Positions 1 to 31,681 of a DNA stretch of 32,000 bases are shown piece after piece. The notes below the pieces were generated by a model. It did not search any database, was not told the origin of the DNA, and worked only from the letters and a program-made list of their open reading frames with translations. The first letter of the stretch is position 1; each line of letters begins with the position of its first letter. Source of the DNA: Candidatus Pacearchaeota archaeon (lineage in GTDB: Archaea; Nanobdellota; Nanobdellia; Pacearchaeales; UBA284); contig CP061211.1 in assembly GCA_026016245.1 (NCBI GenBank), forward strand, positions 1-32,000, in the 5' to 3' direction. Position numbers and translations under genes: made by a program.

Positions 1-3000
1 AAGAACCAGAAGAACCAATAGAAGAACCAGAAGAACCAATAGAAGAACCAGAAGAACCAATAGAAGAACCAGAGGAACTAGAAGAACCAGAAGAACCAGA
101 AGAACAGCCTGCTGAAGAACCTGTTGAAACTGAAATAGATATTCCAGATTTAACTGGAGCTGCTGTAGAAGAAGTTAGAGTGATAGATGGAATTTGTACA
201 ATAGAAGAATCTTTTATTTATGAGATAGATGAAGATGAATTTGCCCAGCTTATTCCTGGTAGCGTGATTTCCAAAAATGAAACATTGAAAGATTCTGTTA
301 TAAAAGTGATAAACAAAAAAACTGAAGTTGAGGTAACAACTAGCTATGCTGAAAAGGAATATGGTTATGGTTCTGATTTTCTTAGAGATAAAAAGATTAT
401 AGGTATTAATCTAAGTAAATTCAATTTTACAGTTTATGAACCTGGCACTTACAAATTTGATGTTAATTTTGTTTATTCAAATATTTCTTTGGCTTCTATT
501 TCCACAGAAGTTTTATTTGAAAATATAACTGAGATGGAACTTATGAATATTACAAATATTACTAACATAACAGAAATTAACGTAACTAATGTAACTAACT
601 TTACAATAACTTTTGTTGATAGAAAAGGAGAAGTGAAGGACATTATTGAGATTGAGTTTGATAAGAGTAAAGAACAGCTATTGAATCTCAAGGTGGCTGA
701 GACAAATATGATAGCTAGTATTATAGAGAAACAAGAAGAGATAAAAGAGGAAATTATAGAAAATAATTTTACAAAAGGAATAATAGGATTAGTTATTGTT
801 CAAGAATTATTGCCTGAAACTGAATTGAATATAGTAGAATTATCCCAGGACATAACTATTCAGATAGATTATCCTACATCAGAACAAGAAGTTATGGGCA
901 TTAAAACAGAAATTTTTGCTCTTGAGCCAACTAATGGACTTGTTTTAGAAGAGTCAATTATAACATTAGAAAAAGTTGAGGAAAATGTAACTTCTATATT
1001 ATATTGTTCTAAATGGGATATTGGATCTTTTTCATGTGATAATGATTGGTCAACTAAAAATATAGGGTTCTTGGATAATGGCACACATATTAGTTTTAAC
1101 ATAACAAGCTTTTCTGCTTATGCTGGTGGCAAGATCATGAATGTAACAAATATCACAAACATAACAGAGGTTTATTTGGAAATATGGGACGAAACAGATT
1201 ATGAAACAAAATATCCTGGCGATGAAGTTGGTTTTTATGCTAATTATAGAGACCAAGATGGAAATCAGATATTAAGTGGATGTAGTATTTTCTTTGATGA
1301 TAAAGAATATAGTATGCTTTTTATAGATCCTTTTTATGAATATATTAAGGTATTTGATTCTTCAGGAGAATTTGATTATAACCTTGTTTGTAATGTTTCT
1401 GAAGCAAGTGACATAGTAGAAATAAAGGAAGTTGAAAAAATAGAAGTAGAGAGAGGCCCTAATTGGGATGGTTATGAAAAAGAAGAAGGTATACACACAA
1501 GAATATTTTATTCAACCAGAGTAAATATAAAAGATTCTGATGGAAATTACTATCCTATTGATGATGTTGTCAAAATTGAGAAAATAAAAGAACATAAGTT
1601 TAATGTAAAATGGAGAGATAATGAGGTGGATATTAATATCATAGGACTTGGTCCAAATAATTTGCTATCAACAAAACTATACAAGCATGAAAAAGAGATT
1701 AGATATGATTATAAATTTAAAATAAATGATTCTAAATTTATCCCAAAAGTTCTCATAAAATCAAATAAAGAACTAGAACTATTAGAATATGGTTTTAGAT
1801 TAGAAGATATTGAATTTGATTTTTCAGAAAAAGCTAAGGAAGATTTTGATGTTAGAATACTAAATGAAGAAACAGGATACAGAATAACAGGATTAGCAGT
1901 AGAACAAAATATAAAAACCAAAACAGGAAGAGTAGAACTAGTGAAGGATTTCTCCAAAAAAGTAGGAGATTTTGTGATAATAGATCCTGTGATTAAATTA
2001 ACTTCTGGCAATGATTCAGCAGATATTCATGGTAGTGCACCTGCTCTGCCACCATCTCATGAATTACAGATGAAATGGGATATAAGTAGTATTCCTGATG
2101 ACTCCAGAATAGATGATGCAAAAGTTTGTTTATATATAATTGATAAACAAGGCAGTCCAGATAATGATGCAAATTTTTCAAGAGTAAATAACCAGACATG
2201 GGATGAAAGTATTGATGCAACAGGATATAATAATTTAGAAGAAACAAACATAACAAAACGCTATATATGGAGCAGCACAACTATTAACACATGGTCTTGC
2301 ATTAATGTGGCTGCCGCAGTATCAACAGATTATAATTTAGATAACCAGAATACAAGTTTTAGAATAGAAGATTTAGATGCTGTTATATCTTCTGTTGGAA
2401 AAATAAATGATTTAACTTACATGAGGTTTGGTGTAGAAGGATTTATGACTCCTGGACCTTTTCTTGATTTTGCTTCAAGAGAATACACTGAGACTGAGGG
2501 TTTAAAGCCTTATCTTAATATTACTTATACAGATATTGTAAACCCAAATATAGAATTTGTTTCTCCTACTCCTGGAAATGGAACAACACGATCAGAAGAT
2601 TATATTTATGTTAATGTTACTACAAGTGACACAAGTGATCATTATGCTGTCTTAGATTGGAATTATTCTTTAAGAGGATGGTGGAGATTTGAGAATAATG
2701 CTAATGATAACAGCACTTATAGTAATCATGGTGTTGTAAGTGGTGCAACTTATGAATCTTCAGGAAAATTTGGAGGAGCATATAATTTTGACGGAAGTGA
2801 TGATTCTGTAAATATATCAGATGCCACTGGTATAGGTTTAGAAGGTAGTGAATTTACTTTAACAACATGGGTAAAACCAAAGCAGTTAAAAAATTATGGT
2901 AATGCATTTGAGAAATTCCCATCAGCTTTGACATCTGGATGGGGGGTTATTACTTATGCTAATGGTAAATGGGATTTCCAAAGCAGAGATAGTTCTGGCT

Positions 3001-9551: not shown

Positions 9552-10162
9552 GTCTTCATTAGAATATCAATTTCTTTTTTTATGTCTTTAGCAACTGTTT
9601 GTATTGGCCTGTTTCCTTCTATAATCTTGATATTGTCTTTTAGATAATTTGGCAGGAGAAGGAACTTTTTTCTTGTTTTACGCAATATTTTCAATTTTTC
9701 AAAATAAGATCTTTTTTCTTTGGTAATCTCATATTTCTCTTTTACTCGCTCTAGAGCAATATCAGCTGGAACATCAATTATAAAAGTAATTGTTGGCATT
9801 AAAAATTCTTTTGTATATTCTTGCCATTCTTCTTCGTCAAGTTGATAAGCGAGAGTGCTGTAATAATAACGGTCACATATTACAATTTTTCTTTCTTCCA
9901 GCGCTGTTTTTATATTCCTAACAACATCTTTTGTATCAAGTCTAAAAAGTTCTAACCATTTTTCCTTGCTTACTCTTGCTGCCTCTTTTCTTCTCAATAA
10001 ATTTTCTATCTTTTTTCCATATTCTCCTTCAGAAGGCTCACTTATTAAAAAAACATCAAAGCCAAGTTTTTCTAGATATTTTTTAAGAATTTCTACTTGT
10101 GCGCTTTTACCATTCCCATCAATTCCATCAAAAACAATAAAAATATTTTTTTGTTGTTTCAT
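9548..10162 (-). CDS. tmk: Thymidylate kinase
   Basis: P-loop FIVFDGIDGNGKSAQ and DRYYYSTLAYQ motif; 204 aa. Its stop codon overlaps the convergent upstream gene's stop in a TTAA palindrome. Confidence 0.85.
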   Translation of the reverse strand: MKQQKNIFIVFDGIDGNGKSAQVEILKKYLEKLGFDVFLISEPSEGEYGKKIENLLRRKEAARVSKEKWLELFRLDTKDVVRNIKTALEERKIVICDRYYYSTLAYQLDEEEWQEYTKEFLMPTITFIIDVPADIALERVKEKYEITKEKRSYFEKLKILRKTRKKFLLLPNYLKDNIKIIEGNRPIQTVAKDIKKEIDILMKT

Positions 10163-10163
10163 T

Positions 10164-10553
10164 TTATTTTAAATTAATAATAATTCTTCTTTCACGAGGG
10201 CCGTCAAATTCACAAAACATTATGCCTTGCCATCTTCCTAATGCCAGTTTTGAATTTTTTATTGGGATAACTTCACTTGGCCCTATAATTGCTGCTTTAA
10301 TATGAGCATCACCATTTCCATCTATTTTGTCATGTTTCCAAATTCCTTTTGGTGCTATTTTCCTTAAAGCTTCAAGAAAATCTTCACATACAGCAGGATC
10401 ATAATTTTCATTAATAGTTATGGCAGCTGTAGCATGAGGAACATAGACAAGACACAAACCTTCCTTGAGTTTTGATTTTTTAACAAGATTTTCTATCTGT
10501 ATTGTTATATCAACTATTTCCTCTCTTTTTTTAGTCTTTATTTTCAATTCCAT
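10164..10553 (-). CDS. YjbQ/UPF0047 family protein (secondary thiamine-phosphate synthase-like)
   Basis: Family signatures seen: LCLVYVPHATAAITINENYDP, DGNGDAHIKAAIIG and LALGRWQGIMFCEFDGPRERR. It ends 1 nt before tmk, so the two are probably one operon. Confidence 0.8.
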   Translation of the reverse strand: MELKIKTKKREEIVDITIQIENLVKKSKLKEGLCLVYVPHATAAITINENYDPAVCEDFLEALRKIAPKGIWKHDKIDGNGDAHIKAAIIGPSEVIPIKNSKLALGRWQGIMFCEFDGPRERRIIINLK

Positions 10554-11692: not shown

Positions 11693-12267
11693 TATGTTTT
11701 TTTATTGGAAAAAGAAACAAGAAAATAGAATATTCTTTCAAGAAATTAGGTTTTGATAAAGTTTATTTTGTAAAGGAAGTGTCTAAATTAAAGGAAATAA
11801 GAAAAGAAGACAAAAGTACTTATAATGCTTTTTTAATTAAAACTAAGGGAATAGAGATGTTGAGGAGGATGGTTGATAAAGCATCTAATTATATTTCCTT
11901 TATTCTTGTTTTAGGGATAAATGATGAAATAAATCGTATCACTTTAGAACATAAAAAAGTCAGGGCTTTGGTAAGTCCTGAATACAAAAGAGAAAAGGAT
12001 TTCTTGCATTATAGAAATTCTGGTTTAAATCAGGTATTATGTAAGATAGCTAGAGACAATGATAAGATAATTATAGAGAATTTTAGTGATTTTATTTTAG
12101 AGAGCAAAGATATAACAAAAGCTCTTATTTTAGGAAGAATGATTCAGAATGCTCGACTTTGTAAAAAATATAAAACAAGACTTATTATAGGGAATTTTGT
12201 TAGAAATAATTCTGAATTTAGGTCAAAATATGATTTAGAAACTTTTAAGAGAATTCTATTTGTTTAG
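11689..12267 (+). CDS. rnp3: RNase P protein component 3 (Rpp30/Rnp3 family)
   Basis: VRALVSPEYKREKDF..SGLNQVLCKIARDNDKIIIENFSDF...LILGRMIQNARLCKKYKTRLIIGNF aligns by eye with the Pyrococcus Rpp30 segment [30 protein letters not shown]...[24 protein letters not shown]. Confidence 0.65.
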   Translation: MICFFIGKRNKKIEYSFKKLGFDKVYFVKEVSKLKEIRKEDKSTYNAFLIKTKGIEMLRRMVDKASNYISFILVLGINDEINRITLEHKKVRALVSPEYKREKDFLHYRNSGLNQVLCKIARDNDKIIIENFSDFILESKDITKALILGRMIQNARLCKKYKTRLIIGNFVRNNSEFRSKYDLETFKRILFV

Positions 12268-12540
12268 AATCTTAATGTTTTTGTTTTTATATGGCCAAGG
12301 GCTATGGCCTAATTGGATAATCAGGTCTATATTCAGGTTTTTAAGTTCAAGAGGCAGGTCGCAAGCACCATAACAAGAACCAAGCCAAATAAGACATTTT
12401 GCTTTTGTTTTTTTCTCAATCTTATCTACTAACTTTGTGGCTTCTAGCTTTAATCCTTCTGGAAGTTGCAAACAGACAAGTTTTGCTTTTTCCTTTTTAA
12501 TTGTTCTAATAATTTTGTCTATCTCCAAATCATATTTCAT
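12256..12540 (-). CDS. dph2: Dph2 (2-(3-amino-3-carboxypropyl)histidine synthase) N-terminal fragment. It is only 94 aa where full-length Dph2 is ~330-340 aa.
   Basis: KAKLVCLQLPEGLKLEATKLVDKIE...CLIWLGSCYGACDLPL...DLIIQLGHS matches the first ~85 residues of archaeal Dph2 (..RVLIQSPEGLRREAEELA...INYGACDP...DALIHLGHS). It has its own AAGGAGA SD about 10 nt upstream. The ORF ends inside the 3' end of the convergent rnp3 gene. Confidence 0.6.
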   Translation of the reverse strand: MKYDLEIDKIIRTIKKEKAKLVCLQLPEGLKLEATKLVDKIEKKTKAKCLIWLGSCYGACDLPLELKNLNIDLIIQLGHSPWPYKNKNIKILNK

Positions 12541-13840: not shown

Positions 13841-16800
13841 TTATTTCCTAGCTAAGTCTTCTTGTTTTGTTATTTTTACAAGTAGTCCAGGAAGCCCTGT
13901 TCCTACTGGTACAGGTTGGTTGAGAATTAGGTTTTCAATCACACTCACAAGATGGTCTGTTGATGCTGTGATAGAAGCATTAACAAAATGTTTTATAGGT
14001 GTTTCGAATGAAGCTCTAGCAAGAATAGATGATTTATCTGATATTATTCCAACTCTTGTAACCCCCTTAACACTTCCGCTTGAAGTCATGGCATCAGCAA
14101 CCAGTTTAATGTGTTTATCATTTATGGCAAGACTTTGTTTTTCTATAACCTTCTTTGCTTCATTAATTATTGCTTGTCTTGCTGCCTCTATTCCAAGGAC
14201 ATTATAGATCTCATAAATATTGTTTGTTATTACCTTATTTTTATCAATACCTTTTATTTTGAAAATATCTTCAAGATTAGAACCAGCTGTAAGAATAATA
14301 TAGTCTGAATCTCTTTTTACGATGAGGATTTGAGATATTCCCTTGACTCCAGCAACATTTGTCTCTTTTAATTTTTCTTTTATCTTATATAGACCTTTAA
14401 AATCTTCTTCTTCCTTTGGTTTTATTGATAATCCTTCATCTGTTTTTTTTATTCTGATATATTTTGATTCTAGAGCTGAGATGATTTTTTCCTTGCTTAG
14501 ATGTAACTCTCTAAGGGATTTTTTGTTTAGTTTTATATTGATTTTGGATTCGCTAAAATTTACCTGGATTTCTTCAGTAATATCATTTAATTTTATCTCT
14601 CTTATCTTTGCAGCTATTCTTTTGGCAGCCCCTGAATTATTATGCTGTCTTTCTAGATAAATCTCCATACTAGGAGTGCTTGGTTTCTTCCTTGCGTCAA
14701 ATATTTCTATTAATCTTGGAAGGCCAACTGTAATCTGCATTTCTGAAACGCCGGCGAAATGGAAAACATTAAGTGTCATCTGTGTAGCTGGTTCACCAAA
14801 ACTCTCTGCTGTTATAACTCCTATAGCCTCTCCAGGAGCAATTTTGTTATCTTCAAGATGTTCTTTTGTTATGTCTATACCATCTTCCCCATATTCAAAT
14901 TGAATAATGTTTGCATTAGAATCTCTTACAGTCCCATCATATTCCACCCTCAAATCTTGTAGTGCATTTACAAGCCTTCTGTACAAGTAGCCGGATTTTG
15001 GTGTTCTTAGTGCTGTATCCATGAGTCCATCTCTTCCTGTAACTGCTGTAAAGAAAAACTCGTCTGCTTTTAATCCATTTAAATAGTTAGAATAAATAAA
15101 TCCGCCTGCCCTAGCTGCAAAATCCCTCTCTTTGTAAAATGATAGAGTCCTGTTATTATATCCAAAGTTTATTCTTTTAGCCCAGAGAGACTGCTGTCCC
15201 ACTGTGGAAGCCATTTGTGTTAAGAACAAAAGACTTCCTCTGGAGCCACACACAGCCATTATATAGGCAGGATTATCCTTTTTGAGTTCTTTTTTAACAG
15301 AATCTCCTACTTTTGTTCTTACCTCATTAAGTGTCTGTAAGATTTTAATTTCTCTGCTCTCTTCAAATGTTTTTCCAGGAATTATTTCTAAAGTATTGTC
15401 ATAGAAAGAGGCAATTATTTTCTGTACTTTCTTTTCAGCTCCTTTGATTATTTCTTTTGTTTCTTCCTTAACCTTATCTGTGGTTTCAATATCTGCTATT
15501 GAGATAGTGAAACCCTTTCTTGTCAAATAAAGGACGCCAAGCAGGAATACTCTCTTTAAGAAATCTATTGTTCTTTTTCTTCCTGCCTGTCTATCTAACT
15601 CTCTTGTTAGAGTATTTGTTTCAACACCAATTATTTTTTCATCGATAAGACCAGAAATAAGCTTTCCATTTTTGATTGCAACATATGCATTATATGGGCA
15701 ATTTTCCTTTTTGCATCTTTCAAAGTAAGGACAGCCCCTTCCTTTACAAGCTTTTGATTTTGTTTCAAAATTTATTTTTGGAAGTAATGCTGAGAATATT
15801 TCTCTTCCATAAACCTTTTCTTTAAAGTGTATGTTTTTTATATTAGTACCACATGCTGAGAGAAGTTGTATAGCCTCTTCTCTTGGGATATTTTTTGCTG
15901 ATGTCAATAGATAGAGGCCGGTTATAGCATCTTCAACACAACCTAACACATTGGCATTTATTTTTGGCGATATGAGATGGTTTGCTACGTCAAGCAGAAC
16001 TTTAGCTTCAGCTCTAGCTTCTTCTGTTTGTGGCACGTGAATATTCATAGCATCACCATCAAAGTCTGCATTGTATGGGAAGGTTGCTGCTGGGTGTATT
16101 CTAAATGTTCTTCCTGGGAGTACTTTTACAAAATGCCCCATAAGACTCATTCTATGTAGTGAGGGATGTCTGTTGAAAAGAACAATATCATTATCTTCTA
16201 GGTGTCTCTCAACAAGATAGCCAATATCAAGTTCTTCTTTAAGTTGTTCTCTTAATTCTTCTGTGATTCTTTTTCTCTTGCCGTCTAGTCTAATAATACT
16301 GTTTGCAGCTGGGTAAATTGTTTTTTCAATTTTTTTGCTAAGAAGGCCCATGTTAGATGTTGTGATTCTTTCAGGGACAGTAAGAACTTTTGCTATTTCA
16401 AGAGGGACGCCAACATCATTAATTTCAATGTATGGATCTGGGCTTATGATTGTTCTTGAGCTGAAATTGACTCTTTTACCAGCAAGATTATGCCTGATTC
16501 TTCCTTGTTTTCCTTTAATTCTTTCAGTTATTGTTTTTAATGGCTGTCCACTTCTATGTCTTGCTGGAGGAACATGACTTATTGTATTATCAAAGAAAGT
16601 TGTTGAATGGTATTGTAATAAATCCCATAGATCCTCGATGATAACTTCTGGGGCCCCTGCATTAAGATTCTCCCACAGACGCTGGTTTGCTCTAACAATA
16701 TCACTTAGCTTATGTGTCAAATCATCCTCACTTCTCTCTCCTGTTTCAAGAGTTATGCTAGGGCGAACTGTTACCGGTGGGACTAACAAAAGAGTTAGAA

Positions 16801-17353
16801 TAGCCCACTCTGGTCTACAAGATTTTGGATTTATTCCTAGAACACGAGCATCACTGTCACTTATCCTAACAAGTCTTTCACGAATTTCTGTAGGGAAGAT
16901 TCTTTTTTTGCCAATGTAAAAAGAAGATGGCTTGTCTAGTTTTACTTTTTCTTGTTTTGTTCCACAATAAGGGCATTTTTTTGCTGTTCTTGCTTTATCT
17001 ACTCTTTTTAATTTTATGTATTCCTCTGTCAAGAGAATCCTTCCACATTCCTGGCATGTAGCTTTTAAACATAGATATATAAGAGGAAGGAATTTTATGT
17101 GCAGAACAGGACGAGCTAGTTCAATATATCCAAAATGACCCAAACACTCTTTAAGCAATCCTCCACAAGTTCTGCATCTGACTCCTGGACCTATTGCTCC
17201 TAGTCTTAGATCCATCAAGCCACCATCTACTGGATAGCCGTCCATGTCATAAAGTTCTGGAGTTACAATTTTAGCAGCACCAAATTTCTTTATCTGCTCA
17301 GGAGAGAACAAGGAAAATTGAATTTCCTTGATCTGTTTAATTATTGGTTCCAT
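13841..17353 (-). CDS. rpoA: DNA-directed RNA polymerase subunit A, with the A' and A'' regions in a single unsplit 1170-aa ORF
   Basis: N-terminal Zn ribbon RCRTCGG..CLGHFGYIEL. Catalytic YNADFDGDAMNIHVPQ. Bridge helix TGRDGLMDTALRTPKSGYLYRRL. Trigger loop (normally in A'') GEAIGVITAESFGEPATQMTLNVFHFAG. A''-type C-terminus NQPVPVGTGLPGLLV. All are in one frame with no stop. Confidence 0.95.
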   Translation of the reverse strand: MEPIIKQIKEIQFSLFSPEQIKKFGAAKIVTPELYDMDGYPVDGGLMDLRLGAIGPGVRCRTCGGLLKECLGHFGYIELARPVLHIKFLPLIYLCLKATCQECGRILLTEEYIKLKRVDKARTAKKCPYCGTKQEKVKLDKPSSFYIGKKRIFPTEIRERLVRISDSDARVLGINPKSCRPEWAILTLLLVPPVTVRPSITLETGERSEDDLTHKLSDIVRANQRLWENLNAGAPEVIIEDLWDLLQYHSTTFFDNTISHVPPARHRSGQPLKTITERIKGKQGRIRHNLAGKRVNFSSRTIISPDPYIEINDVGVPLEIAKVLTVPERITTSNMGLLSKKIEKTIYPAANSIIRLDGKRKRITEELREQLKEELDIGYLVERHLEDNDIVLFNRHPSLHRMSLMGHFVKVLPGRTFRIHPAATFPYNADFDGDAMNIHVPQTEEARAEAKVLLDVANHLISPKINANVLGCVEDAITGLYLLTSAKNIPREEAIQLLSACGTNIKNIHFKEKVYGREIFSALLPKINFETKSKACKGRGCPYFERCKKENCPYNAYVAIKNGKLISGLIDEKIIGVETNTLTRELDRQAGRKRTIDFLKRVFLLGVLYLTRKGFTISIADIETTDKVKEETKEIIKGAEKKVQKIIASFYDNTLEIIPGKTFEESREIKILQTLNEVRTKVGDSVKKELKKDNPAYIMAVCGSRGSLLFLTQMASTVGQQSLWAKRINFGYNNRTLSFYKERDFAARAGGFIYSNYLNGLKADEFFFTAVTGRDGLMDTALRTPKSGYLYRRLVNALQDLRVEYDGTVRDSNANIIQFEYGEDGIDITKEHLEDNKIAPGEAIGVITAESFGEPATQMTLNVFHFAGVSEMQITVGLPRLIEIFDARKKPSTPSMEIYLERQHNNSGAAKRIAAKIREIKLNDITEEIQVNFSESKINIKLNKKSLRELHLSKEKIISALESKYIRIKKTDEGLSIKPKEEEDFKGLYKIKEKLKETNVAGVKGISQILIVKRDSDYIILTAGSNLEDIFKIKGIDKNKVITNNIYEIYNVLGIEAARQAIINEAKKVIEKQSLAINDKHIKLVADAMTSSGSVKGVTRVGIISDKSSILARASFETPIKHFVNASITASTDHLVSVIENLILNQPVPVGTGLPGLLVKITKQEDLARK

Positions 17354-23773: not shown

Positions 23774-23881
23774 AGGGCCTGACGGGACTCGAACCCGCAA
23801 CATCCAGCTTTCTCCGTTCGGGTTGATAAGGGCTTGCCCTTATTTAGAAGGCTGGCGCTCTATCCATTGAGCTACAGGCCC
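23774..23881 (-). tRNA. tRNA-Arg (UCU) with a ~35-nt intron at the canonical 37/38 position
   Basis: Reverse complement: GGGCCTG TA GCTC AATGGATA GAGC G CCAGC CUUCUA[intron AATAAGGGCAAGCCCTTATCAACCCGAACGGAGAA]A GCTGG ATGTT GCGGG TTCGAGT CCCGT CAGGCCC. The intron lies at about 23810-23844 and contains an 8-bp hairpin (ATAAGGGC/GCCCTTAT). Mature length is 73 nt. Confidence 0.8.
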
Positions 23882-23911: not shown

Positions 23912-24655
23912 TTAACTTTTATCCCCAACAAATTGTTTTTCTATTTTTTCAAGAAAAGAAATCTTACTGATATCATCATATTCCATATAACAATTCTTAC
24001 CATGTTCTTTGGCATATCTTAGAGCTATGTTGGCTTTCTCAAACAAATCTAGATTACCATTTCTCTTCCCATTTTTACTTTTTGGCATAAATTTTTCATA
24101 AGCACTTTTCATCTTTGATGTGGCTAATTCAGTTTTTTTATTATGTGAGGCGACTCCAATACTTGCTGTAAGATTAAAAGAAGCAAGAAATTTATCCTCT
24201 TGAATAAACTTCCTAATTCTTTCAGCCATATTTTTAGCATCTTCTGAGGGAGTTTCAGGCATTAAAACAACAAATTCTTCACCGCCAAACCTAGCAGCGA
24301 CATCTGTTTCTCGGACATTACTTTTGATAATCATTGAAACCATCTGTAAAACCTCATCGCCACGAAGATAACCATGCTTATCATTGATCCTTTTAAAATC
24401 ATCTAAATCAAGAAGCAACATTGAGATAGTTCTGCCATAACGTTCAGCTATTGCCATCTCATGTTTAAAGACAGAATTAAAATACCTATAATTGTAAAGT
24501 TGTGTTTTAGTATCCACAGTAGCTAGATAATAAAGCTTGGCTATTTTTTTAGCATCAAGACCTTTCTTAAGATCTTCTTTTCTACCTAAAATTTTCTTTA
24601 ACCAGTCTGCCATCTTAAAATTCAAATATATCAAATAATATAATCCAACAAACAC
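23912..24655 (-). CDS. Stand-alone GGDEF-domain protein (putative diguanylate cyclase) with intact GGEEF active site and RxxD I-site
   Basis: LLDLDDFKRINDKHGYLRGDEVL (metal and substrate motifs), RETD-VAARF-GGEEF (I-site with the same spacing as PleD RESD-LLGRY-GGEEF; GGEEF is at 24272-24286), and SIGVA...ANIALRYAKEHGKN. The more likely start is MADWLKK (ATG at 24613), because the 14 upstream codons lie in an AT-rich promoter-like stretch. Confidence 0.85.
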   Translation of the reverse strand: MFVGLYYLIYLNFKMADWLKKILGRKEDLKKGLDAKKIAKLYYLATVDTKTQLYNYRYFNSVFKHEMAIAERYGRTISMLLLDLDDFKRINDKHGYLRGDEVLQMVSMIIKSNVRETDVAARFGGEEFVVLMPETPSEDAKNMAERIRKFIQEDKFLASFNLTASIGVASHNKKTELATSKMKSAYEKFMPKSKNGKRNGNLDLFEKANIALRYAKEHGKNCYMEYDDISKISFLEKIEKQFVGDKS

Positions 24656-24690
24656 AATACCTTTAAAAATTTAACCTTTATCAATTTATT

Positions 24691-25455
24691 ATGATAGATT
24701 GCCATTGCCATTTTGAGCAAAAAGAGTATGATAAAGATAGAAACAAAATCATAGAAAAGTGTAAAAAACAACTAAAAGCAATAATAACATCATCAGCGCA
24801 TCCAAAAGATATAAAATTAACACTAGAACTAACAAAAAAATATCCAAATTTTATATTTGCAGCAATAGGTTTACATCCAACTTATATTAAGGAACTGACA
24901 GAAGAGCAAATAAACAAAACAATAGAAGCAATAAAAAATAACAAAGACAAGATTGTTGCAGTTGGAGAGATAGGTTTAGATTATTTCTGGATCAAAGAAG
25001 AGGAATGGCAAGAAAAACAAAGACAACTTTTCAAAAAAATGATAAAAATAGTAAAAGAACTAGGATTGCCTTTAGTAATTCATAGCAGAAATGCCAGAGA
25101 AGATACAATAAAAATTTTAGAAGAAGAAGGAATGAAAAGGAAAAAGGTTTTAATGCATCTATTTACTGACAGAAAAAATTTACAAAGAGTGATAGATAAT
25201 GGCTGGTTTGTTTCAATAGGTCCTGGCATCAAGAGATCAAAAAATCTAAGAAAGATAGCGAGAGATACTCCTTTAAATAAAATTCTTCTGGAAACTGATT
25301 CTCCGTGGTTTGCTCAAGAAAATCAAAAATATGGAACTCCACTCAATATAAAAATTGCAGCAAAAAAAATCGCAGAAATAAAAAAATTAACCATAGAACA
25401 GGTAGAAAAGCAAACAGATTTAAATGCAATTGAATTTTTTAATTTAGAATGGTAG
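24691..25455 (+). CDS. tatD: TatD-family metal-dependent hydrolase/DNase
   Basis: N-terminal MIDCHCHF, GEIGLDYF, LPLVIHSR, LETDSPW. Confidence 0.85.
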   Translation: MIDCHCHFEQKEYDKDRNKIIEKCKKQLKAIITSSAHPKDIKLTLELTKKYPNFIFAAIGLHPTYIKELTEEQINKTIEAIKNNKDKIVAVGEIGLDYFWIKEEEWQEKQRQLFKKMIKIVKELGLPLVIHSRNAREDTIKILEEEGMKRKKVLMHLFTDRKNLQRVIDNGWFVSIGPGIKRSKNLRKIARDTPLNKILLETDSPWFAQENQKYGTPLNIKIAAKKIAEIKKLTIEQVEKQTDLNAIEFFNLEW

Positions 25456-25733
25456 ATTTATTCATGATTTTAGCAATAATCGTCGCATTATTAGGTTATC
25501 CTCTTGGCCTCATTCTTGCAAAAATAACAAAAGAAGAATTAAAAACAGGAAAAAAATGGTTTAGGTTGATTATTGCTGTTTGTGTAATAGCAATAGTAGT
25601 TTCAGTCATATTTACAGGAGGAAAAACTTTCTTGTTTCTTATTTTAAGTTTTGTTTTTATTATTCTAGTCACTTTGCCATCATTGATTAAGAAAGAAAAA
25701 CAAAAGAAGAAAAAGAAGAAAAAGAAAAAATAA
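25449..25733 (+). CDS. Small membrane protein (about 3 TM helices) with a C-terminal poly-lysine tail
   Basis: It overlaps the tatD stop by 7 nt, has hydrophobic segments, and ends KKEKQKKKKKKKKK. Confidence 0.55.
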   Translation: MVDLFMILAIIVALLGYPLGLILAKITKEELKTGKKWFRLIIAVCVIAIVVSVIFTGGKTFLFLILSFVFIILVTLPSLIKKEKQKKKKKKKKK

Positions 25734-25734
25734 A

Positions 25735-26445
25735 ATGCTCTATTTGATTGGTTTGGGTTTAGAAAAGAAAGATATTAATATTAAAGCCCTAGAAATAATA
25801 AAGAAATGCAAAAAAATCTATCTTGAAATTTATACAACAAAACTGCCTTATAAAAAAATAGATCTTGAAAAAGTAATTAAGAAAAAAGTAATTGATGCAA
25901 AAAGAGATTTAGTTGAGTCTGATTTTTTAATTAAAGAAGCTAAGAAACAAAATATTGCCTTATTAATTTATGGTGATCCTCTTTCTGCAACTACTCATGT
26001 ATCTTTGATGAATGAGGCAAAGAAAGCTAAAGTTAAAATACAAATTATGCATAATACATCAATTTTCAATGCGATTAGTGAAACAGGCCTTCACTTATAT
26101 AAATTTGGTAAAACAGTCAGCATACCAAAATGGAAAGAACATTATGAGCCCATGAGTTTTTATCAAACTATAAAGGAAAATTTGAATATAGAAGCACATA
26201 CTTTATTGTTAGTAGATATTGATTTGAGTTTAAAAGAAGCATTAAGAGAGCTGGCTGAAGCGTCAAATAAGGAATTAGATAATAAAACAATAATTATATG
26301 CTCACAATTAGGAACAAAAAATCAGAAAATTGTGAATGGAAAGTTTAAAGAATTAGTAAAAAAAATTCCAAGAGTTAAGGAACCTTTTTGCATTATAATT
26401 CCTGCTTCATTACATTTCACAGAAGCAGAATTCCTTAAAATTTAG
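25735..26445 (+). CDS. dph5: Diphthine synthase (Dph5/DphB)
   Basis: MLYLIGLGL...YLEIYT...YGDPLSATTHVSL...GLHLYKFGKTVSI...AHTLLLVDI...LHFTEAEFL aligns along its full length with archaeal Dph5. Confidence 0.9.
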   Translation: MLYLIGLGLEKKDINIKALEIIKKCKKIYLEIYTTKLPYKKIDLEKVIKKKVIDAKRDLVESDFLIKEAKKQNIALLIYGDPLSATTHVSLMNEAKKAKVKIQIMHNTSIFNAISETGLHLYKFGKTVSIPKWKEHYEPMSFYQTIKENLNIEAHTLLLVDIDLSLKEALRELAEASNKELDNKTIIICSQLGTKNQKIVNGKFKELVKKIPRVKEPFCIIIPASLHFTEAEFLKI

Positions 26446-26487: not shown

Positions 26488-27024
26488 ATGTTTACTATGA
26501 AACAAAAATGTAGCCTTTGGCGGGTTTTTGATGTATTTGTTGAAAAACCCTTAAAGATTTATTATATCAAAGAAATAGCTAGAAAAATAAATCTTGCTCC
26601 AACATCTGTTAAAAAGCATTTGTTATATTTACTCAAACAAAATTTAATACTTAAAAAGAAAGGTGAAAGGTTTTTTGGTTTTGTAGCTAATAGAGATAAT
26701 AAAGATTTTTTATTCTACAAGAAGATATTCAATATAATCAGACTTAAAGAATCTGGATTTCTTGATTTTTTAATTGATTCTCTTCATCCACAAGCAATAG
26801 TTCTATATGGTTCATACTTTAGAGGGGAAGATATAGAGACTAGCGATATAGATATGCTAATACTCTCAAAAATTAAAAAAAGATTAATATTGGAGAAATT
26901 TGAGAGAATTTTAAAGAAGGGAATTCATCTTATAACTATAGCTAGTCTGAAAAAATTAACACCTGGGTTAAAAATGGAAGTAATTAATGGATTGGTTTTA
27001 CATGGATATTTAAAAAATGATTGA
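26488..27024 (+). CDS. wHTH-fused minimal nucleotidyltransferase (MNT-type antitoxin-like)
   Basis: The N-terminal ~70 aa are wHTH-like (IKEIARKINLAPTSVKKHLLYLLKQNLILKK). NTase motif LYGSYFRGEDIETSDIDMLIL (G-S...D-x-D) lies at 26809-26853. A perfect TTTATATA box at 26466-26473 suggests a near-leaderless transcript, possibly using the second ATG at 26497. Confidence 0.75.
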   Translation: MFTMKQKCSLWRVFDVFVEKPLKIYYIKEIARKINLAPTSVKKHLLYLLKQNLILKKKGERFFGFVANRDNKDFLFYKKIFNIIRLKESGFLDFLIDSLHPQAIVLYGSYFRGEDIETSDIDMLILSKIKKRLILEKFERILKKGIHLITIASLKKLTPGLKMEVINGLVLHGYLKND

Positions 27025-27421
27025 AGAGATATTTAAAATTTCAAAGAGCATGGGAAGGGCAAAAGCATTAAAAGAAATGGCGCAAGAAAGATTTAGTGAT
27101 GTTGAAAAAGAGAAGAAAACCTACAAAATTATAGAGCAATATTATGAAGTAATAAAAGAACTTATAACTGCATTAATGTATCTAGATGGATTCAAAACAT
27201 TGAGCCATAAGGCCCTTCTTTTTTATTTAGAAAAAAATTATAATAGATTCTTCAGTAAAGATGAGTTTATTTTAATAGATGAAACAAGAAGATTAAGAAA
27301 TGATATCTTATATTATGGAAAAAAAATTGATTTAACTTTCTTGACAAATAATGAAGAAAGAATAAAAAAGATAACAAATAAACTTATTAGGATAGTTAAT
27401 AAAAAACTTCCCAACATTTAA
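27017..27421 (+). CDS. HEPN-domain protein (partner of the MNT gene; toxin-like)
   Basis: It overlaps the MNT gene by 8 nt. It is a 134-aa helical protein with ETRRLRNDILYYG (27287-27316) where the HEPN R-x4-6-H motif would sit, here reading R-x4-Y. Confidence 0.65.
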   Translation: MIEEIFKISKSMGRAKALKEMAQERFSDVEKEKKTYKIIEQYYEVIKELITALMYLDGFKTLSHKALLFYLEKNYNRFFSKDEFILIDETRRLRNDILYYGKKIDLTFLTNNEERIKKITNKLIRIVNKKLPNI

Positions 27422-27457: not shown

Positions 27458-30400
27458 ATGGAAAAAAAGGTGAAGAAATTATTATTAGTGAGCATTTTTC
27501 TTGTTATGATTTTCTTGGTTTTGATGGTTAATGTTAGTGCTGCTGTTAGTTTATGTCGCAGCTCTGAGCTTGTTAAAGTATTTTGTAAGGGTATGGGTTG
27601 CCATCCTCTTTGGGAGTCTGTTGAATCTGAAACAGCATGTCAATATGAAATGTGGGGCGGCCCACCATATGCTAATTACTGTTATGATAATGGTTTTTAT
27701 CCAATAGCAACAACCACACATAAAGGTTCGTCAAAAGCGTGTAGATTTGCAAAAACGATTACTGGTTGTGGCCTGTTGTATCGAAATCGTAAATGTTGGG
27801 GTATTTGTTCAAAAGGTGAAGAATATGCATATAGAACAACAAAATATAATCATATGTTTATAAAAACTAAAATAAATGATACAGACATGATTCCAGATGC
27901 TCAGACTTGTTATAATTCTATTCTGTGCGATTCTGGTTGGACTGAATATATTAAGTGGCATGATCATGTAAAAATAAGTCCAGGCGGAGATAGGTATCAT
28001 TGTGTAAGAGTATGTGTTAAATGTGAGGATGGATATGTTAATGTTGATAATAACTGGGATAATGGTTGTGAACCTGCTACTGGTTGTGATGCTGTTTGTT
28101 ATGCTGCATGCCGTCAAAGACCATATCTACCTACAGGGTGTCATACACCAATGATGGGTTGGCCACATCCTTTTTGTGAAAGCAGTTGCAAATGTCACTG
28201 TAGACATACCCCAGAAGATGGATGTATTCTGAATTATGCTGAAGACTGTGCTGCTCAAGGAGGAATTTGTCGTGAGATTGGTAATGGAGCAGAATGTCAG
28301 ACTTTTGGTATAGAACATTGTAGTGGTTCTTGTCAGGTTTGTCAGAATGTGCTTGATGATATGCCTGATAATCATATTTTAATGATTGATTCTGATATTT
28401 CTGCTCCATTTGGCGGCTATGGAAAATACTGTTTAAGTTTTGGAGGAACAAATAAAACAATTGATTGTGGAGATAATTGGATTACTGGAGGAGAAGGCCG
28501 TGTCACAGGAATTTTTGTTTTAGGCACTGGCCATACAATTCAAAACTGTAAAATAAAATCCTTTTACGGAGAAAGTGATGGCATTTGGCGAGGTGGGAGA
28601 GGAATACAGACTGTTTATGGTGTTAATATTAATATAAAAAATATAGAAATAACTGATATAAAAGGTAAATCTAAATACATTCCTCCGGAAGAACCGCCAA
28701 TACAATATTCAAGTAACAATAATTTTTATCCAGAGCTAGAATTCCAAGGAGGAGGTTCTTGGGAACACTATCCAGGTGCGGGAATTGAAATATTAGCTAA
28801 TACTGGACCTACTTTTATTGGAGCATATCTTTCTGATGTAAATATACATAATAATGAATGGTATGGTTTATATTTAAGACAAGGTGAGGTTAGTGTAACA
28901 AATTCAAGATTTTGTTTTAACAGTCAATTTGACATTAAAAAAGATGCTGGAAGTGTTAAATATCACTCTGGCCTTACTTGTGATCAAAATAAAGTTCCTG
29001 CTGGAGTGACTTGTGAAGAACCTTGCGGACTTCCAGGAGAATGTGTTGTAAATTCAATAAGTGTCACACCAGATTGTGAAGGTGGTTCAAGTCCTGCCTG
29101 TGAGCTAGGTGAAGAGATAATGATAAGTATAAGTTATTCTGGAACTGAGTGTCCTACTCCTTCTTATATTCAGGTCGATGCTAACTCTACTGGAGATCCT
29201 CTTGGTGAAAAATGTACTATTGCATGGAAATCTCCTCCAGCATCAATCAAAGGAATGGAAACAACATGCACAAGCTCACCTTGCACAGAAAATTGGGTAA
29301 TTAATATACCTTCAATTCCTTCTGAATGTTTAGGAAAAACAGTTTATGCTTGGGCAGTTGGCTTGTATGATGATCCTAGCTACACCCCAGGACATCATGT
29401 AACAGGCAACACAACTACAATTCCTTATCCAAGTTATGGTCATTTCACTTTTGCTGAAGAAGAAATACCACCAACAGAATGTAAAATTATAGATGCAGAT
29501 GTTAAGACATATTGTGGAACTGAAGGATGTGATAATGGAGACAAAGTTGAATTGAATATAACAGTAGAAGATATGAGTAAGTGTGAGGCATTAAATGTCA
29601 ATAAAATGCAAATAGATGCTTTTTCAGATGCGCAATCACAACCAACAGGCATGGTTATTGGTGGAGGAGCTTTATGTAATGTTTATATGGTTAATTCAAG
29701 TGTAATAAAACAAGGTGATACTTATTTAGGAAATTGGACTGTTATAGTTCCTCAAGGCTGTCAAGGAGAAACTGTAGATGCGAATATAGCAAAAGTTTTC
29801 AATAATACTGGACAAATAGCACAAAAATTTGGAAATTTCGGATCTTTTGATTTTGTTGATGAACCTACAAACTGGTATGTACTTGAAGATATTAGTGTTT
29901 CACCTTCAGTTTTTGTTTTGAATATTACTGACACACAACAACTTGAAGTTATTGCATTAATGAAATGGGTAAAAAACAATAGCTTCTTTACTTTGGATGT
30001 AACCCAACAAGCAGATTATATTTCAAATGATACTAGCGTTGCTTCTGTTTCAGCACTCGGCTTAGTTACTGGAATTGGAGATGGGACAGGAAAAATAACT
30101 GCAGAATACACACATTCTGAGGTCACAAAAGAAGACTCTAGTATTGTTAATGTCAGATATTTTGAAGATGATTATATTAGATATATTAATCTGGCTTTAA
30201 ATAAATATGAAATTGAAATAAATGAAGAAACAAGTTATGAAGTTAAGGCTTATTGGTCTAATGGTCTGACAACTGATATAACTTCTGAATCAGATGTTCA
30301 GAGTTTAAATCCAAATGTTGCTTCTGTAAATCAAAATACTCATAGAGTTAAGGGAGAGGATGAAGGAATAGCCATCATAAATGCTAGCTATATTCATAAT

Positions 30401-31681
30401 AATCTTCCTTATGGAGATGAAAAATTTATAATTGTTACTGGAGAAGCAGTTGGAGAATATAATCTTTCAGTTGACACATGTGGAGATACATCTATTCCAC
30501 CAGATGGAGATTGTGAAGATTTTATTAATGTGAAAGGTGAAATAACTGTTAATCAAGAATCTTGGGGCATTGCACCACAAGAAAGATTCCCACTTCCTTC
30601 AGATAATTATAGAGTTTCTTTTGGTCCTCTTCAGGATTGGTATGAACCTGGGGAGATGTCAGTATTTTTGCCTCCAAATGTTTCTTTGATGGGTATTTAT
30701 ACTAAAGAGCCTGTGGAGTATGCTCTAATAATTGTCCAAGCTAAAGATGAACAGACAGGACAATTTATCAATGCTTTAATTAACTTATATCTTGAAGATG
30801 ATCTTGTTAATTCTACTATAAATGATGTGAGATATAATTATTCAGAGACATATCCTATTGAATTCACAGCTGAATTTGAAGACCAAAGTGGTTACATTAC
30901 ACCATCTAATTTAACAATAACAATTTATGGAAATGGAATTTATTTCTTTACAGTTTATTATGAAAAAGAAGCAGTTGGAGAATGTTTCTGTGAACCAAAG
31001 CATGTTCCTTGTGGTTTTTGTTATGATTTTTATTCTGAATGTGATGGCCCTCCACAAGGACCTGGACAAATAATTCCTTGTTCACCTGGTTGGATATGTA
31101 ATTATGTGACAGGAAAATGTCAACCAACTTCAACCCAAGATGAGTGTCATGATAATGCTACTACTTGTAATATTATCACTGGTTGTTATTGGGATTATCC
31201 AGACATCCCTCCTCCTTATTGTAAACATTGCCAAACAGAAGGTCCTGAAACATGTTCAGGTTATGATAATCAGGGAACTTGTAATTTAGATCCTTGTGTT
31301 GTCAAGAATGTTGGTTGTCCTTCTGGTGCTAGTGACTGTAGATGTGAATGGGAAACTGATGAATGTATTCTTAAATATCAACAACAAACAAATGGAGATT
31401 TTTGTGAGATAACTTTAAGACAGGGGACTTGTGAAGAAGGTTGCCAAGGAAAAATAAATTATAGATGGCAAAATTATACTTGTGATCCTGGTTCATGTTC
31501 AGAACAAGCTTGCGTGGATTTAACCTATCCTCCCCCAGATTATACAAAATCAGAATGTGTGATTTGTCCGACACCTTTTAGAGAGCTTCCATTTTTTTCA
31601 TGGTGGAATATTTTAGCTGTTGTGTCTGTATTGATAGTGTTTTATATATTCATGCTTAGAAAAAAGAGAATTAATTATTAA
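27458..31681 (+). CDS. 1407-aa cysteine-rich secreted surface protein with a C-terminal TM anchor. Order of parts: signal peptide, N-terminal Cys-rich region, beta-helix-like region, two Big_2-like Ig domains, C-terminal Cys-rich region, TM helix.
   Basis: Signal peptide LLLVSIFLVMIFLVLMVNVSA|AV. About 30 Cys in residues ~30-300 (27550-28360). Big_2-like segments ISVSPSVFVLNITDTQQLEV...ISNDTSVASVSALGLVTGIGDGTGKITAEY (~29885-30110) and YEIEINEETSYEVKAYW...LNPNVASVNQNTHRVKGEDEGIAIINASY (~30200-30390). About 28 Cys in 30976-31580. Anchor WWNILAVVSVLIVFYIFMLRKKR. Confidence 0.85.
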   Translation: MEKKVKKLLLVSIFLVMIFLVLMVNVSAAVSLCRSSELVKVFCKGMGCHPLWESVESETACQYEMWGGPPYANYCYDNGFYPIATTTHKGSSKACRFAKTITGCGLLYRNRKCWGICSKGEEYAYRTTKYNHMFIKTKINDTDMIPDAQTCYNSILCDSGWTEYIKWHDHVKISPGGDRYHCVRVCVKCEDGYVNVDNNWDNGCEPATGCDAVCYAACRQRPYLPTGCHTPMMGWPHPFCESSCKCHCRHTPEDGCILNYAEDCAAQGGICREIGNGAECQTFGIEHCSGSCQVCQNVLDDMPDNHILMIDSDISAPFGGYGKYCLSFGGTNKTIDCGDNWITGGEGRVTGIFVLGTGHTIQNCKIKSFYGESDGIWRGGRGIQTVYGVNINIKNIEITDIKGKSKYIPPEEPPIQYSSNNNFYPELEFQGGGSWEHYPGAGIEILANTGPTFIGAYLSDVNIHNNEWYGLYLRQGEVSVTNSRFCFNSQFDIKKDAGSVKYHSGLTCDQNKVPAGVTCEEPCGLPGECVVNSISVTPDCEGGSSPACELGEEIMISISYSGTECPTPSYIQVDANSTGDPLGEKCTIAWKSPPASIKGMETTCTSSPCTENWVINIPSIPSECLGKTVYAWAVGLYDDPSYTPGHHVTGNTTTIPYPSYGHFTFAEEEIPPTECKIIDADVKTYCGTEGCDNGDKVELNITVEDMSKCEALNVNKMQIDAFSDAQSQPTGMVIGGGALCNVYMVNSSVIKQGDTYLGNWTVIVPQGCQGETVDANIAKVFNNTGQIAQKFGNFGSFDFVDEPTNWYVLEDISVSPSVFVLNITDTQQLEVIALMKWVKNNSFFTLDVTQQADYISNDTSVASVSALGLVTGIGDGTGKITAEYTHSEVTKEDSSIVNVRYFEDDYIRYINLALNKYEIEINEETSYEVKAYWSNGLTTDITSESDVQSLNPNVASVNQNTHRVKGEDEGIAIINASYIHNNLPYGDEKFIIVTGEAVGEYNLSVDTCGDTSIPPDGDCEDFINVKGEITVNQESWGIAPQERFPLPSDNYRVSFGPLQDWYEPGEMSVFLPPNVSLMGIYTKEPVEYALIIVQAKDEQTGQFINALINLYLEDDLVNSTINDVRYNYSETYPIEFTAEFEDQSGYITPSNLTITIYGNGIYFFTVYYEKEAVGECFCEPKHVPCGFCYDFYSECDGPPQGPGQIIPCSPGWICNYVTGKCQPTSTQDECHDNATTCNIITGCYWDYPDIPPPYCKHCQTEGPETCSGYDNQGTCNLDPCVVKNVGCPSGASDCRCEWETDECILKYQQQTNGDFCEITLRQGTCEEGCQGKINYRWQNYTCDPGSCSEQACVDLTYPPPDYTKSECVICPTPFRELPFFSWWNILAVVSVLIVFYIFMLRKKRINY

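Follow-up and report, generated by a model that had tools for sequence, protein, structure and literature searches.

The window analysed here comprises the first 32,000 nucleotides of contig CP061211.1 of a Candidatus Pacearchaeota archaeon (assembly GCA_026016245.1). Its minus strand carries a gene for a stand-alone GGDEF protein of 233 amino acids (aa), which we predict to be a small diguanylate cyclase. The open reading frame (ORF) 23912..24655(-) is present in the window, but the start listed by the program, GTG 24655, is an ORF-caller artefact and is replaced here by ATG 24613, since M-x-D-W-[LI]-K-K forms the N-terminus of all orthologues in an alignment of 24 sequences and a TATA-like element, TTATATTATTT (24634-24644, minus strand), is situated 21-31 nt 5' of this codon. 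The protein is 100% identical to UZE93973.1, labelled in GenBank as 'GGDEF domain-containing protein [Candidatus Pacearchaeota archaeon]' and encoded in a contig of 710,724 bp. The domain assignment is thus already known, and as a family member the protein is unexceptional, the family being so large that 465,060 cluster representatives match at E <= 1e-3.

The domain is recognised by PF00990, the Pfam GGDEF profile (E 5.2e-40, 137.3 bits, cut-off 23.8, matched from position 1 to 160 in a profile of 161), and by TIGR00254 (149.1 bits, cut-off 37.4). The original prediction, made from the sequence alone, had stated that a sensor domain is absent, and this is borne out. The gene and the parts of its product are as follows.

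23912..24613, minus strand: coding sequence of the GGDEF protein, UZE93973.1 (Pfam, TIGRFAM and the orthologue alignment)
24587..24610, minus strand: N-terminal amphipathic helix (aa 2-9, DWLKKIL), conserved, with low confidence in the AlphaFold2 (AF2) model
24518..24553, minus strand: stalk helix (aa 21-32, AKKIAKLYYLAT), continuous with the GGDEF domain (AF2, Foldseek)
24479..24514, minus strand: NRR-type entry motif DTKTQLYNYRYF (aa 34-45), a variant of the canonical D-x-LTGL-x-NRR-x-F
24380..24409, minus strand: DLDDFKRIND (aa 69-78), with metal-binding D69, F73/K74 and guanine-contacting N77
24356..24373, minus strand: G81-Y82 through D86, the guanine-specificity Asp
24302..24313, minus strand: RETD (aa 101-104), RxxD of the primary inhibitory site, five residues before GGEEF
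24272..24286, minus strand: GGEEF active-site motif (aa 110-114)
24047..24142, minus strand: disordered insert rich in Lys (aa 158-189), placed after the SIGVA strand and before the last helix
23993..24046, minus strand: true last helix (aa 190-203, LFEKANIALRYAKE, including K202) and GKN (aa 205-207)
23918..23980, minus strand: extra C-terminal amphipathic helix (aa 212-232, ...SFLEKIEKQ...), outside the GGDEF domain

Conserved residues and predicted fold

By alignment with PleD of Caulobacter, D69 corresponds to D327, N77 to N335, D86 to D344, R101 and D104 to R359 and D362, GGEEF 110-114 to residues 368-372, and R132 to R390. We take K202 and K206 to be the counterparts of PleD K442 and R446. 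The 24-sequence alignment is invariant at D69, D71, F73, K74, N77, D86, R101, D104 and RFGGEEF 108-114, as well as at R132, K202 and G205-K206-N207, and the R..D-x5-GGEEF block is present in 38 of the 38 family clusters. The inhibitory site (R101, D104, R132) is complete, the spacing between RxxD and GGEEF is identical to that in PleD, and K202 is present at the presumed position of a phosphate-binding Lys. The conserved residues also correspond to those of DosC (D333, F337, K338, N341, D342, D350, L353, R372 and GGDEF) whose mutation abolishes or reduces function (PMC5549716). DLDDFKRIND, GGEEF and RxxD at the canonical five-residue distance had all been noticed in the original prediction, the coordinates of GGEEF being exact. 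Its reading of the domain as catalytically intact is supported at the sequence level, as every residue that can be mapped to PleD or DosC is conserved and invariant, and the protein is likely an intact GGDEF enzyme.

The AF2 model has the standard GGDEF fold, with the mean predicted local distance difference test score of 81.6 and values above 90 in the core. Foldseek matched it to GGDEF structures only (E 2.5e-16, template-modelling score up to 0.89, normalised by target length), the top ones being GacA 6D9M, GCN4-WspR, GcbC and PleD, all with probability 1.0. The likeness to PleD (1W25/2V0N) covers the fold and the spacing of the metal-binding Asp, Asn335, Asp344, RxxD-x5-GGEEF and R390, and by analogy product inhibition may be expected in the window protein as well. 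On the other hand, PleD is driven by two receiver domains, whereas the window protein has no sensor. It also has GY for GH, NYR for NRR and GKN for GRN, the loop holding the insert is about 22 residues longer than its PleD counterpart, there is an extra C-terminal helix, and the host is an archaeon.

In GCN4-WspR (3I5C), DgcB (6TTR) and DgcR (6ZXB) the GGDEF domain is immediately preceded by a helix, as in the window protein, and the Foldseek alignments span 218-226 columns including this N-terminal helix. By analogy with such coiled-coil structures, the stalk helix may be a short dimerisation stalk, and the model makes dimerisation through it plausible. However, it has only about 12 residues (1.5 heptads), and it receives no input from an upstream signalling domain. 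The N-terminal amphipathic helix may be a membrane- or partner-binding peptide.

The insert had been described earlier as about 25 Lys-rich residues before the final helix. Its existence and position stand, whereas its length does not, since about 32 residues (158-189) are disordered. Inside it there is a conserved KS-x-Y-x-x-FMP motif (24083-24109), seen as Y-D-Q-FMP in the related locus L098. HMMER and Pfam place the C-terminus of the domain on the insert, which is a misalignment, and hence the Pfam boundaries understate the domain. In the model the true last helix is followed by a strand at 209-211.

Archaeal neighbourhood and distribution

The GGDEF gene is flanked by the following features.

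24614..24690, strandless: divergent promoter spacer of 77 bp, shared with tatD
24691-25455, plus strand: tatD (TIGR00010, 219 bits)
25449-25733, plus strand: gene for a small membrane protein ending in poly-Lys (KKEKQKKKKKKKKK)
25735-26445, plus strand: dph5 (TIGR00522, 207 bits, cut-off 114)
23774..23881, minus strand: tRNA-Arg(UCU) with a 35-nt intron (Rfam, 61 bits), 30 nt past the GGDEF stop codon
23701..23771, minus strand: tRNA-Cys(GCA), next after tRNA-Arg

The window also encodes split RpoB''/B', Rpb1-type RpoA, RpoH, TrmB, DUF357 and a Dph2 fragment. Starting from dph5, the gene order is dph5, the small membrane protein and tatD, transcribed away from the GGDEF gene, and then, in the direction of the latter, GGDEF, tRNA-Arg, tRNA-Cys, a 114-aa membrane protein, TrmB, rpoH, rpoB'', rpoB' and rpoA. 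This order is repeated in Logan DRR463595, GCA_038886195.1 (a 620-kb contig), GCA_038885395.1, GCA_964396475.1 and JGI 3300031355. In GCA_964354405.1 the tatD side and the two tRNAs are kept, a mobile element follows tRNA-Cys, and the stretch compared ends before the rpo side. More distant relatives with 39-48% identity (L088-L091, L092, L098) retain only the tatD-x-dph5 side. The gene also occurs in GCA_040960625.1 and GCA_002499185.1. Of the neighbours of the GGDEF gene, the divergent operon of tatD, the small ORF and dph5 (24691..26445, plus strand) is conserved best. Twelve loci, drawn from assemblies of NCBI, JGI, ENA and Logan, have the pairing with tatD, even where GGDEF identity falls to 39%, and their contigs include ones of 710, 620, 192 and 187 kb. 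A small ORF of 85-101 aa fills the gap between tatD and dph5 in most related loci.

The spacer contains a palindromic TATA-like element, TTTAAAAATTTAA, at 24662-24674, 17-29 nt upstream of the tatD ATG. It is conserved in seven loci and may be a bidirectional core promoter; such a spacer is compatible with co-expression with the housekeeping operon.

The tRNA-Arg gene was detected by Rfam and missed by ARAGORN, run in the bacterial mode. As judged by alignment to intron-less orthologues, the intron occupies approximately 23809-23843, which is position 37/38 of the tRNA or adjacent to it. In L082, L084 and L086, too, the GGDEF gene is followed by these two tRNAs, and since the tRNA-Arg(UCU) of these three loci has no intron, the latter was recently gained or lost within the clade.

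The divergence of the GGDEF protein parallels that of its housekeeping neighbours TatD, Dph5 and TrmB, as seen from the percentage of identity to the window proteins.

L086: GGDEF 75, TatD 73, Dph5 79, TrmB 82
L082: GGDEF 65, TatD 71, Dph5 66, TrmB 70
L090: GGDEF 48, TatD 57, Dph5 53
L092: GGDEF 39, TatD 55, Dph5 57, TrmB 40

These data bear on the possibility that the gene is bacterial DNA, put into the wrong bin or fused chimerically to an archaeal contig. Galperin et al. 2018 (PMC5847659) and Romling 2022 (PMC10086821) voiced this worry about archaeal GGDEF matches in general; moreover, the nearest relatives outside the family that have a source name are bacterial. However, both junctions are shared by assemblies that are independent in sample and in assembler, the GC content of the gene (about 0.30) equals that of the flanks, the gene is preceded by a TATA box of the archaeal type and arranged as for a leaderless transcript, and it diverges in parallel with the neighbouring core genes. 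Given the recurring synteny, the parallel divergence and the matching GC content, chimerism and contamination are excluded for practical purposes, and this explanation, already effectively refuted, has almost no credibility left. Contamination had been deemed unlikely in the original prediction on account of an intron-containing tRNA 30 nt downstream, tatD and dph5 upstream, and the AT-rich composition shared with the neighbours. Each of these observations was confirmed, and the independent assemblies, the 12 tatD-GGDEF loci and the parallel divergence make the case stronger.

Galperin et al. 2018 reported one archaeal GGDEF protein and one inactivated, with a warning about contamination (PMC5847659). 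Braun et al. 2021 mentioned in passing more than 300 archaeal GGDEF BLAST hits, mostly from Asgard and DPANN archaea (PMC8646023). According to Romling 2022, the presence of GGDEF in archaea 'needs to be confirmed in archaeal contigs' (PMC10086821), and in a 2023 review diguanylate cyclases are almost exclusively bacterial and cyclic di-GMP (c-di-GMP) is undescribed in archaea (PMC10249747). Our literature searches found no study devoted to GGDEF proteins of archaea, DPANN or Pacearchaeota. The locus supplies the archaeal-contig confirmation for one GGDEF family, and its interest lies in secure archaeal residence, conservation and easy testability. The original prediction had called GGDEF signalling essentially bacterial; archaeal residence of the gene holds, but the gene is not unique: it belongs to a conserved Pacearchaeota family, already labelled in GenBank, and archaeal hits number more than 300 (PMC8646023).

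Two GGDEF domains have been attributed to archaea individually, CAJ37382 of Methanocella arvoryzae and the inactivated WspR-like protein of Ca. Micrarchaeum (PMC5847659). By their descriptions, these are set apart as isolated cases, one of them degenerate, for which the authors flagged possible contamination, whereas in the window family the motifs are intact, and residence in archaea is proven by the conserved synteny.

The Woesearchaeota locus L003 (CAZCCD010000001.1, 152 kb; 9959-10549, plus strand) represents a second GGDEF lineage in archaea. It encodes a stand-alone, sensor-less GGDEF protein of 196 aa with a Lys-rich N-terminus, the D-x-KT-x-LYN entry motif and RxxD-x5-GGEEF (RKSD); the contig is archaeal, the genes alongside being those of aIF2-gamma and a DTD2-type deacylase. 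It differs in having canonical GH and GRD, no insert and no link to TatD. In neighbour-joining (NJ) trees the window family, marked by GY, forms a clade with 66% bootstrap, and L003 falls loosely into a wider clade of short stand-alone proteins with 49% bootstrap. These trees did not identify a bacterial donor lineage.

The window family is lineage-specific. Its features are GY for GH, GKN for GRN, the disordered Lys-rich insert with Y..FMP and the short terminal helices, and AD is changed to AN. In a protein collection clustered at 90% identity there are about 30 clusters at 54-80% identity and about eight at 38-49%; P0137, P0193, P0215, P0236, P0244 and L098 are further short relatives. The search of representatives was ranked by the whole-protein score, so that tandem-GGDEF bacterial proteins dominate it, and it was useful for short relatives. 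The scan of a genome collection with the family alignment gave at least 600 matches, mostly bacterial GGDEFs, and among the matches listed L003 is the only archaeal locus, with no close relatives.

At similar depth TatD orthologues are more numerous than GGDEF ones, at least 120 at 54% identity or above. Out of four TatD loci at 59-63% identity, L098 has the GGDEF gene, whereas L095, L096 and L097 have neither the gene nor a remnant within 4 kb; L096 is a 648-kb genome, CP070794.1 (GCA_020343435.1). In L097 an M64 peptidase gene adjoins tatD (2152-4756), while in L092 (9137-12943) they are separated by the GGDEF gene together with an ORF of 84 aa. This is a clean presence/absence polymorphism, usable in hunting for partners, and presence or absence among related genomes is a route to receptors. 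Since some related genomes lack the gene, it is a conserved but dispensable trait in part of the Pacearchaeota. It had been suggested that the prediction would lose its point if such genes were routine in the lineage; this is partly so, the family being conserved, but with relatives devoid of the gene. The gene is adjacent to tatD wherever the upstream flank can be read, which speaks for one insertion with later losses. Its history is that of an old acquisition followed by vertical descent. In these ultra-small archaea the gene is fixed next to tatD-dph5; among the closer relatives the RNA polymerase operon is nearby as well.

Predicted activity, product and partners

Taken together, the protein is probably a minimal, sensor-less and product-inhibited diguanylate cyclase that belongs to the archaeon; judging from sequence, we give this about two chances in three.

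Several observations weigh against such an activity. The His of ND-x-x-G-H is replaced by a family-invariant Tyr (Y82), while a sample of domains outside the family has His at this position in 279 cases out of 287 and Tyr in four. The original prediction had taken NDKHGY for a swap of residues; the alignment corrects this, since the residue preceding G81 is variable across the family (H/Y/F/Q/E). The first Arg of NRR is Tyr in the window protein, and Tyr, Ser or Ala in the family, and R306A, a mutation of this Arg in DosC, is non-functional (PMC5549716). The position of PleD R446 is occupied by an invariant Lys, as in 37 of 225 non-family domains. Pfam profiles of PilZ, EAL and HD-GYP found nothing in any plausible ORF of the window, which is less than 5% of the 710-kb genome, in agreement with the original prediction, nor in five related loci, and Rfam found no c-di-GMP riboswitch in the same stretches. 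c-di-GMP is undetected in any archaeon (PMC10249747, PMC8646023). Finally, there is the dispensability of the gene. At that, ND-x-x-G-H and N-R-R are consensus features rather than proven catalytic requirements, and little can be concluded from the absence of partners in 32 kb when the genome has 710 kb.

The same substitutions could mean that the protein is catalytically weak or dead and serves as a nucleotide- or c-di-GMP-binding protein or scaffold, acting through the inhibitory site or the termini. The changes of His to Tyr (GY) and Arg to Tyr (NYR) are rare and affect highly conserved positions, partner enzymes are not visible in the loci scanned, and an inactivated archaeal GGDEF is on record in Micrarchaeum (PMC5847659). 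However, degenerate GGDEF receptors normally lose GG[DE]EF, metal-binding or base-binding residues, and here all of these are invariant down to about 41% identity to the window protein. GacA of Geobacter is active despite Tyr at the same position of NRR (PMC6456294), and a receptor role requires a source of the ligand, none being known in these genomes. Hence we consider an inactive binding protein improbable.

The product of the predicted cyclase would be c-di-GMP, given Asp86 combined with GGEEF and the lack of union with the hybrid promiscuous (Hypr) GGDEF clade in NJ bootstraps. The alternative is an active enzyme with another or mixed product, 3',3'-cyclic GMP-AMP (cGAMP), c-di-AMP or linear pppGpG, owing to kinship with Hypr enzymes. 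The Hypr protein GacA (6D9M, PMC6456294) is the best match among solved structures in both sequence and fold (E 2.4e-32, the next one being 6.8e-26). The entry motif L[YF]NYRY[FL] is common to both, including the cross-dimer Tyr: Y42 corresponds to the Hypr 'signature' Tyr304 of GacA. In a distant archaeal subgroup this position is taken by S, A or V, as in cGAMP-biased enzymes. Moreover, 57 of the 82 nearest matches outside the 38-cluster family have the Hypr signature (Ser + GGDEF), although the hit list behind this proximity is biased by word matching.

On the other hand, GacA has a receiver domain, Ser348 and GGDEF, and makes mainly cGAMP, whereas all family members have Asp86 and GGEEF and thus lack the signature, Ser or Thr at the GacA 348 position with GGDEF. 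The primary determinant of specificity is Asp86 rather than Ser, and in the Goldilocks model Asp at this position with GGEEF makes a strict diguanylate cyclase, as in mutants of GacA and WspR, c-di-GMP being the sole product of GacA S348D/D374E (PMC6456294). GacA does not group with the window family in NJ trees, the archaeal and Hypr clades being joined in none of 200 bootstrap replicates. A product other than c-di-GMP is thus unlikely, if slightly less so than loss of activity. A Hypr-derived origin, suggested by the scores, was likewise considered; the specificity residues and the bootstraps do not support it.

The conserved neighbourhood suggests yet another possibility, namely that GGDEF and the divergent TatD nuclease form a functional pair, in which a cyclic nucleotide controls the nuclease or TatD is the degrading phosphodiesterase. 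All 12 loci whose upstream sequence is available have the two genes side by side, with a spacer of 50-90 bp, whereas the opposite flank varies, and TatD matches the defence nuclease model QatD (114-128 bits). However, TatD passes the cut-off of the housekeeping TIGR00010 model and is in an operon with dph5. As tatD occurs without GGDEF in L095, L096 and L097, the unit of tatD, the small ORF and dph5 being intact in L095 and L097, it is independent of the latter. One insertion, in genomes that are compact and slow to rearrange, can account for the adjacency. We regard a functional pair as quite improbable, and TatD as an obligate partner was rejected as the main explanation in view of the three loci without GGDEF. 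A defence-system role was also considered and dropped, as the GGDEF protein matches no PADLOC model and scores 22 bits with mCpol, below the cut-off of 40.

The following scenario for the predicted diguanylate cyclase may be proposed. An ancestor of the Pacearchaeota clade would have gained a bacterial-type GGDEF domain, which settled beside the tatD-dph5 operon and has since then descended vertically, kept by purifying selection, though lost from some lineages. Two copies would pair, probably via the short stalk helix and perhaps via the terminal helices, each holding one guanosine triphosphate (GTP) through D69/E112-Mg2+, N77, D86 and K202/K206, and the pair would condense two GTPs to c-di-GMP. 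The enzyme would be expressed constitutively and, since there is no sensor domain, its output would probably be set by the expression level and by product feedback at the RxxD/R132 site. The Lys-rich insert with Y..FMP and the terminal amphipathic helices would be the likeliest sites of lineage-specific regulation or localisation.

It is a more tentative suggestion, for which we would give somewhat less than even odds, that this DPANN clade makes c-di-GMP as a second messenger, with receptors and degrading enzymes unlike PilZ, EAL and HD-GYP, or with the nucleotide passed to neighbouring or host cells. If true, it would be the first c-di-GMP signalling system in Archaea. As the protein is small, soluble-looking and sensor-less, the question of archaeal c-di-GMP is directly testable.

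Other features of the window and related loci

RNA polymerase subunit A is split in most archaea. Here A' and A'' are fused in one ORF of 1170-1178 aa, at 13841-17353(-) in the window, 16241-19777 in L082 and 16278-19790 in L086; the NCBIfam models place A' on residues 4-834 and A'' on 826-1154. The rpoB gene, on the other hand, is split into B'' and B'.

Two Rfam tRNA matches in L090, 3831-4000 and 7695-7906(-), are 170 and 212 nt long, so that the tRNA genes may have introns or insertions of unusual length. In L084 (11232-20708) and in L085 an integrase gene is located directly 3' of tRNA-Cys, on the downstream side of the GGDEF gene, and after it come genes for an N6/N4 DNA methylase and for a ResIII helicase. 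This is a mobile or defence island integrated at a tRNA, and it is absent from the window.

The 94-aa ORF at 12256-12540(-) of the window matches the first 64 of the 302 positions of Diphthamide_syn (Dph2) with E 1.6e-12, and may be a truncated or split dph2. At 26488-27421(+) a nucleotidyltransferase gene (MNT-like, NTP_transf_2) overlaps a 134-aa ORF that has no Pfam match; relatives carry HEPN or HepT-like proteins at the position of the latter, which suggests a toxin-antitoxin pair. Finally, the window encodes two predicted surface proteins of giant size. The first (180-5750, plus strand) has 1856 aa, with Laminin_G_3 and NosD/beta-helix domains, and the second (27458-31681, plus strand) has 1407 aa and includes a Big_2 domain; similar PKD/NosD giants flank the locus in relatives.

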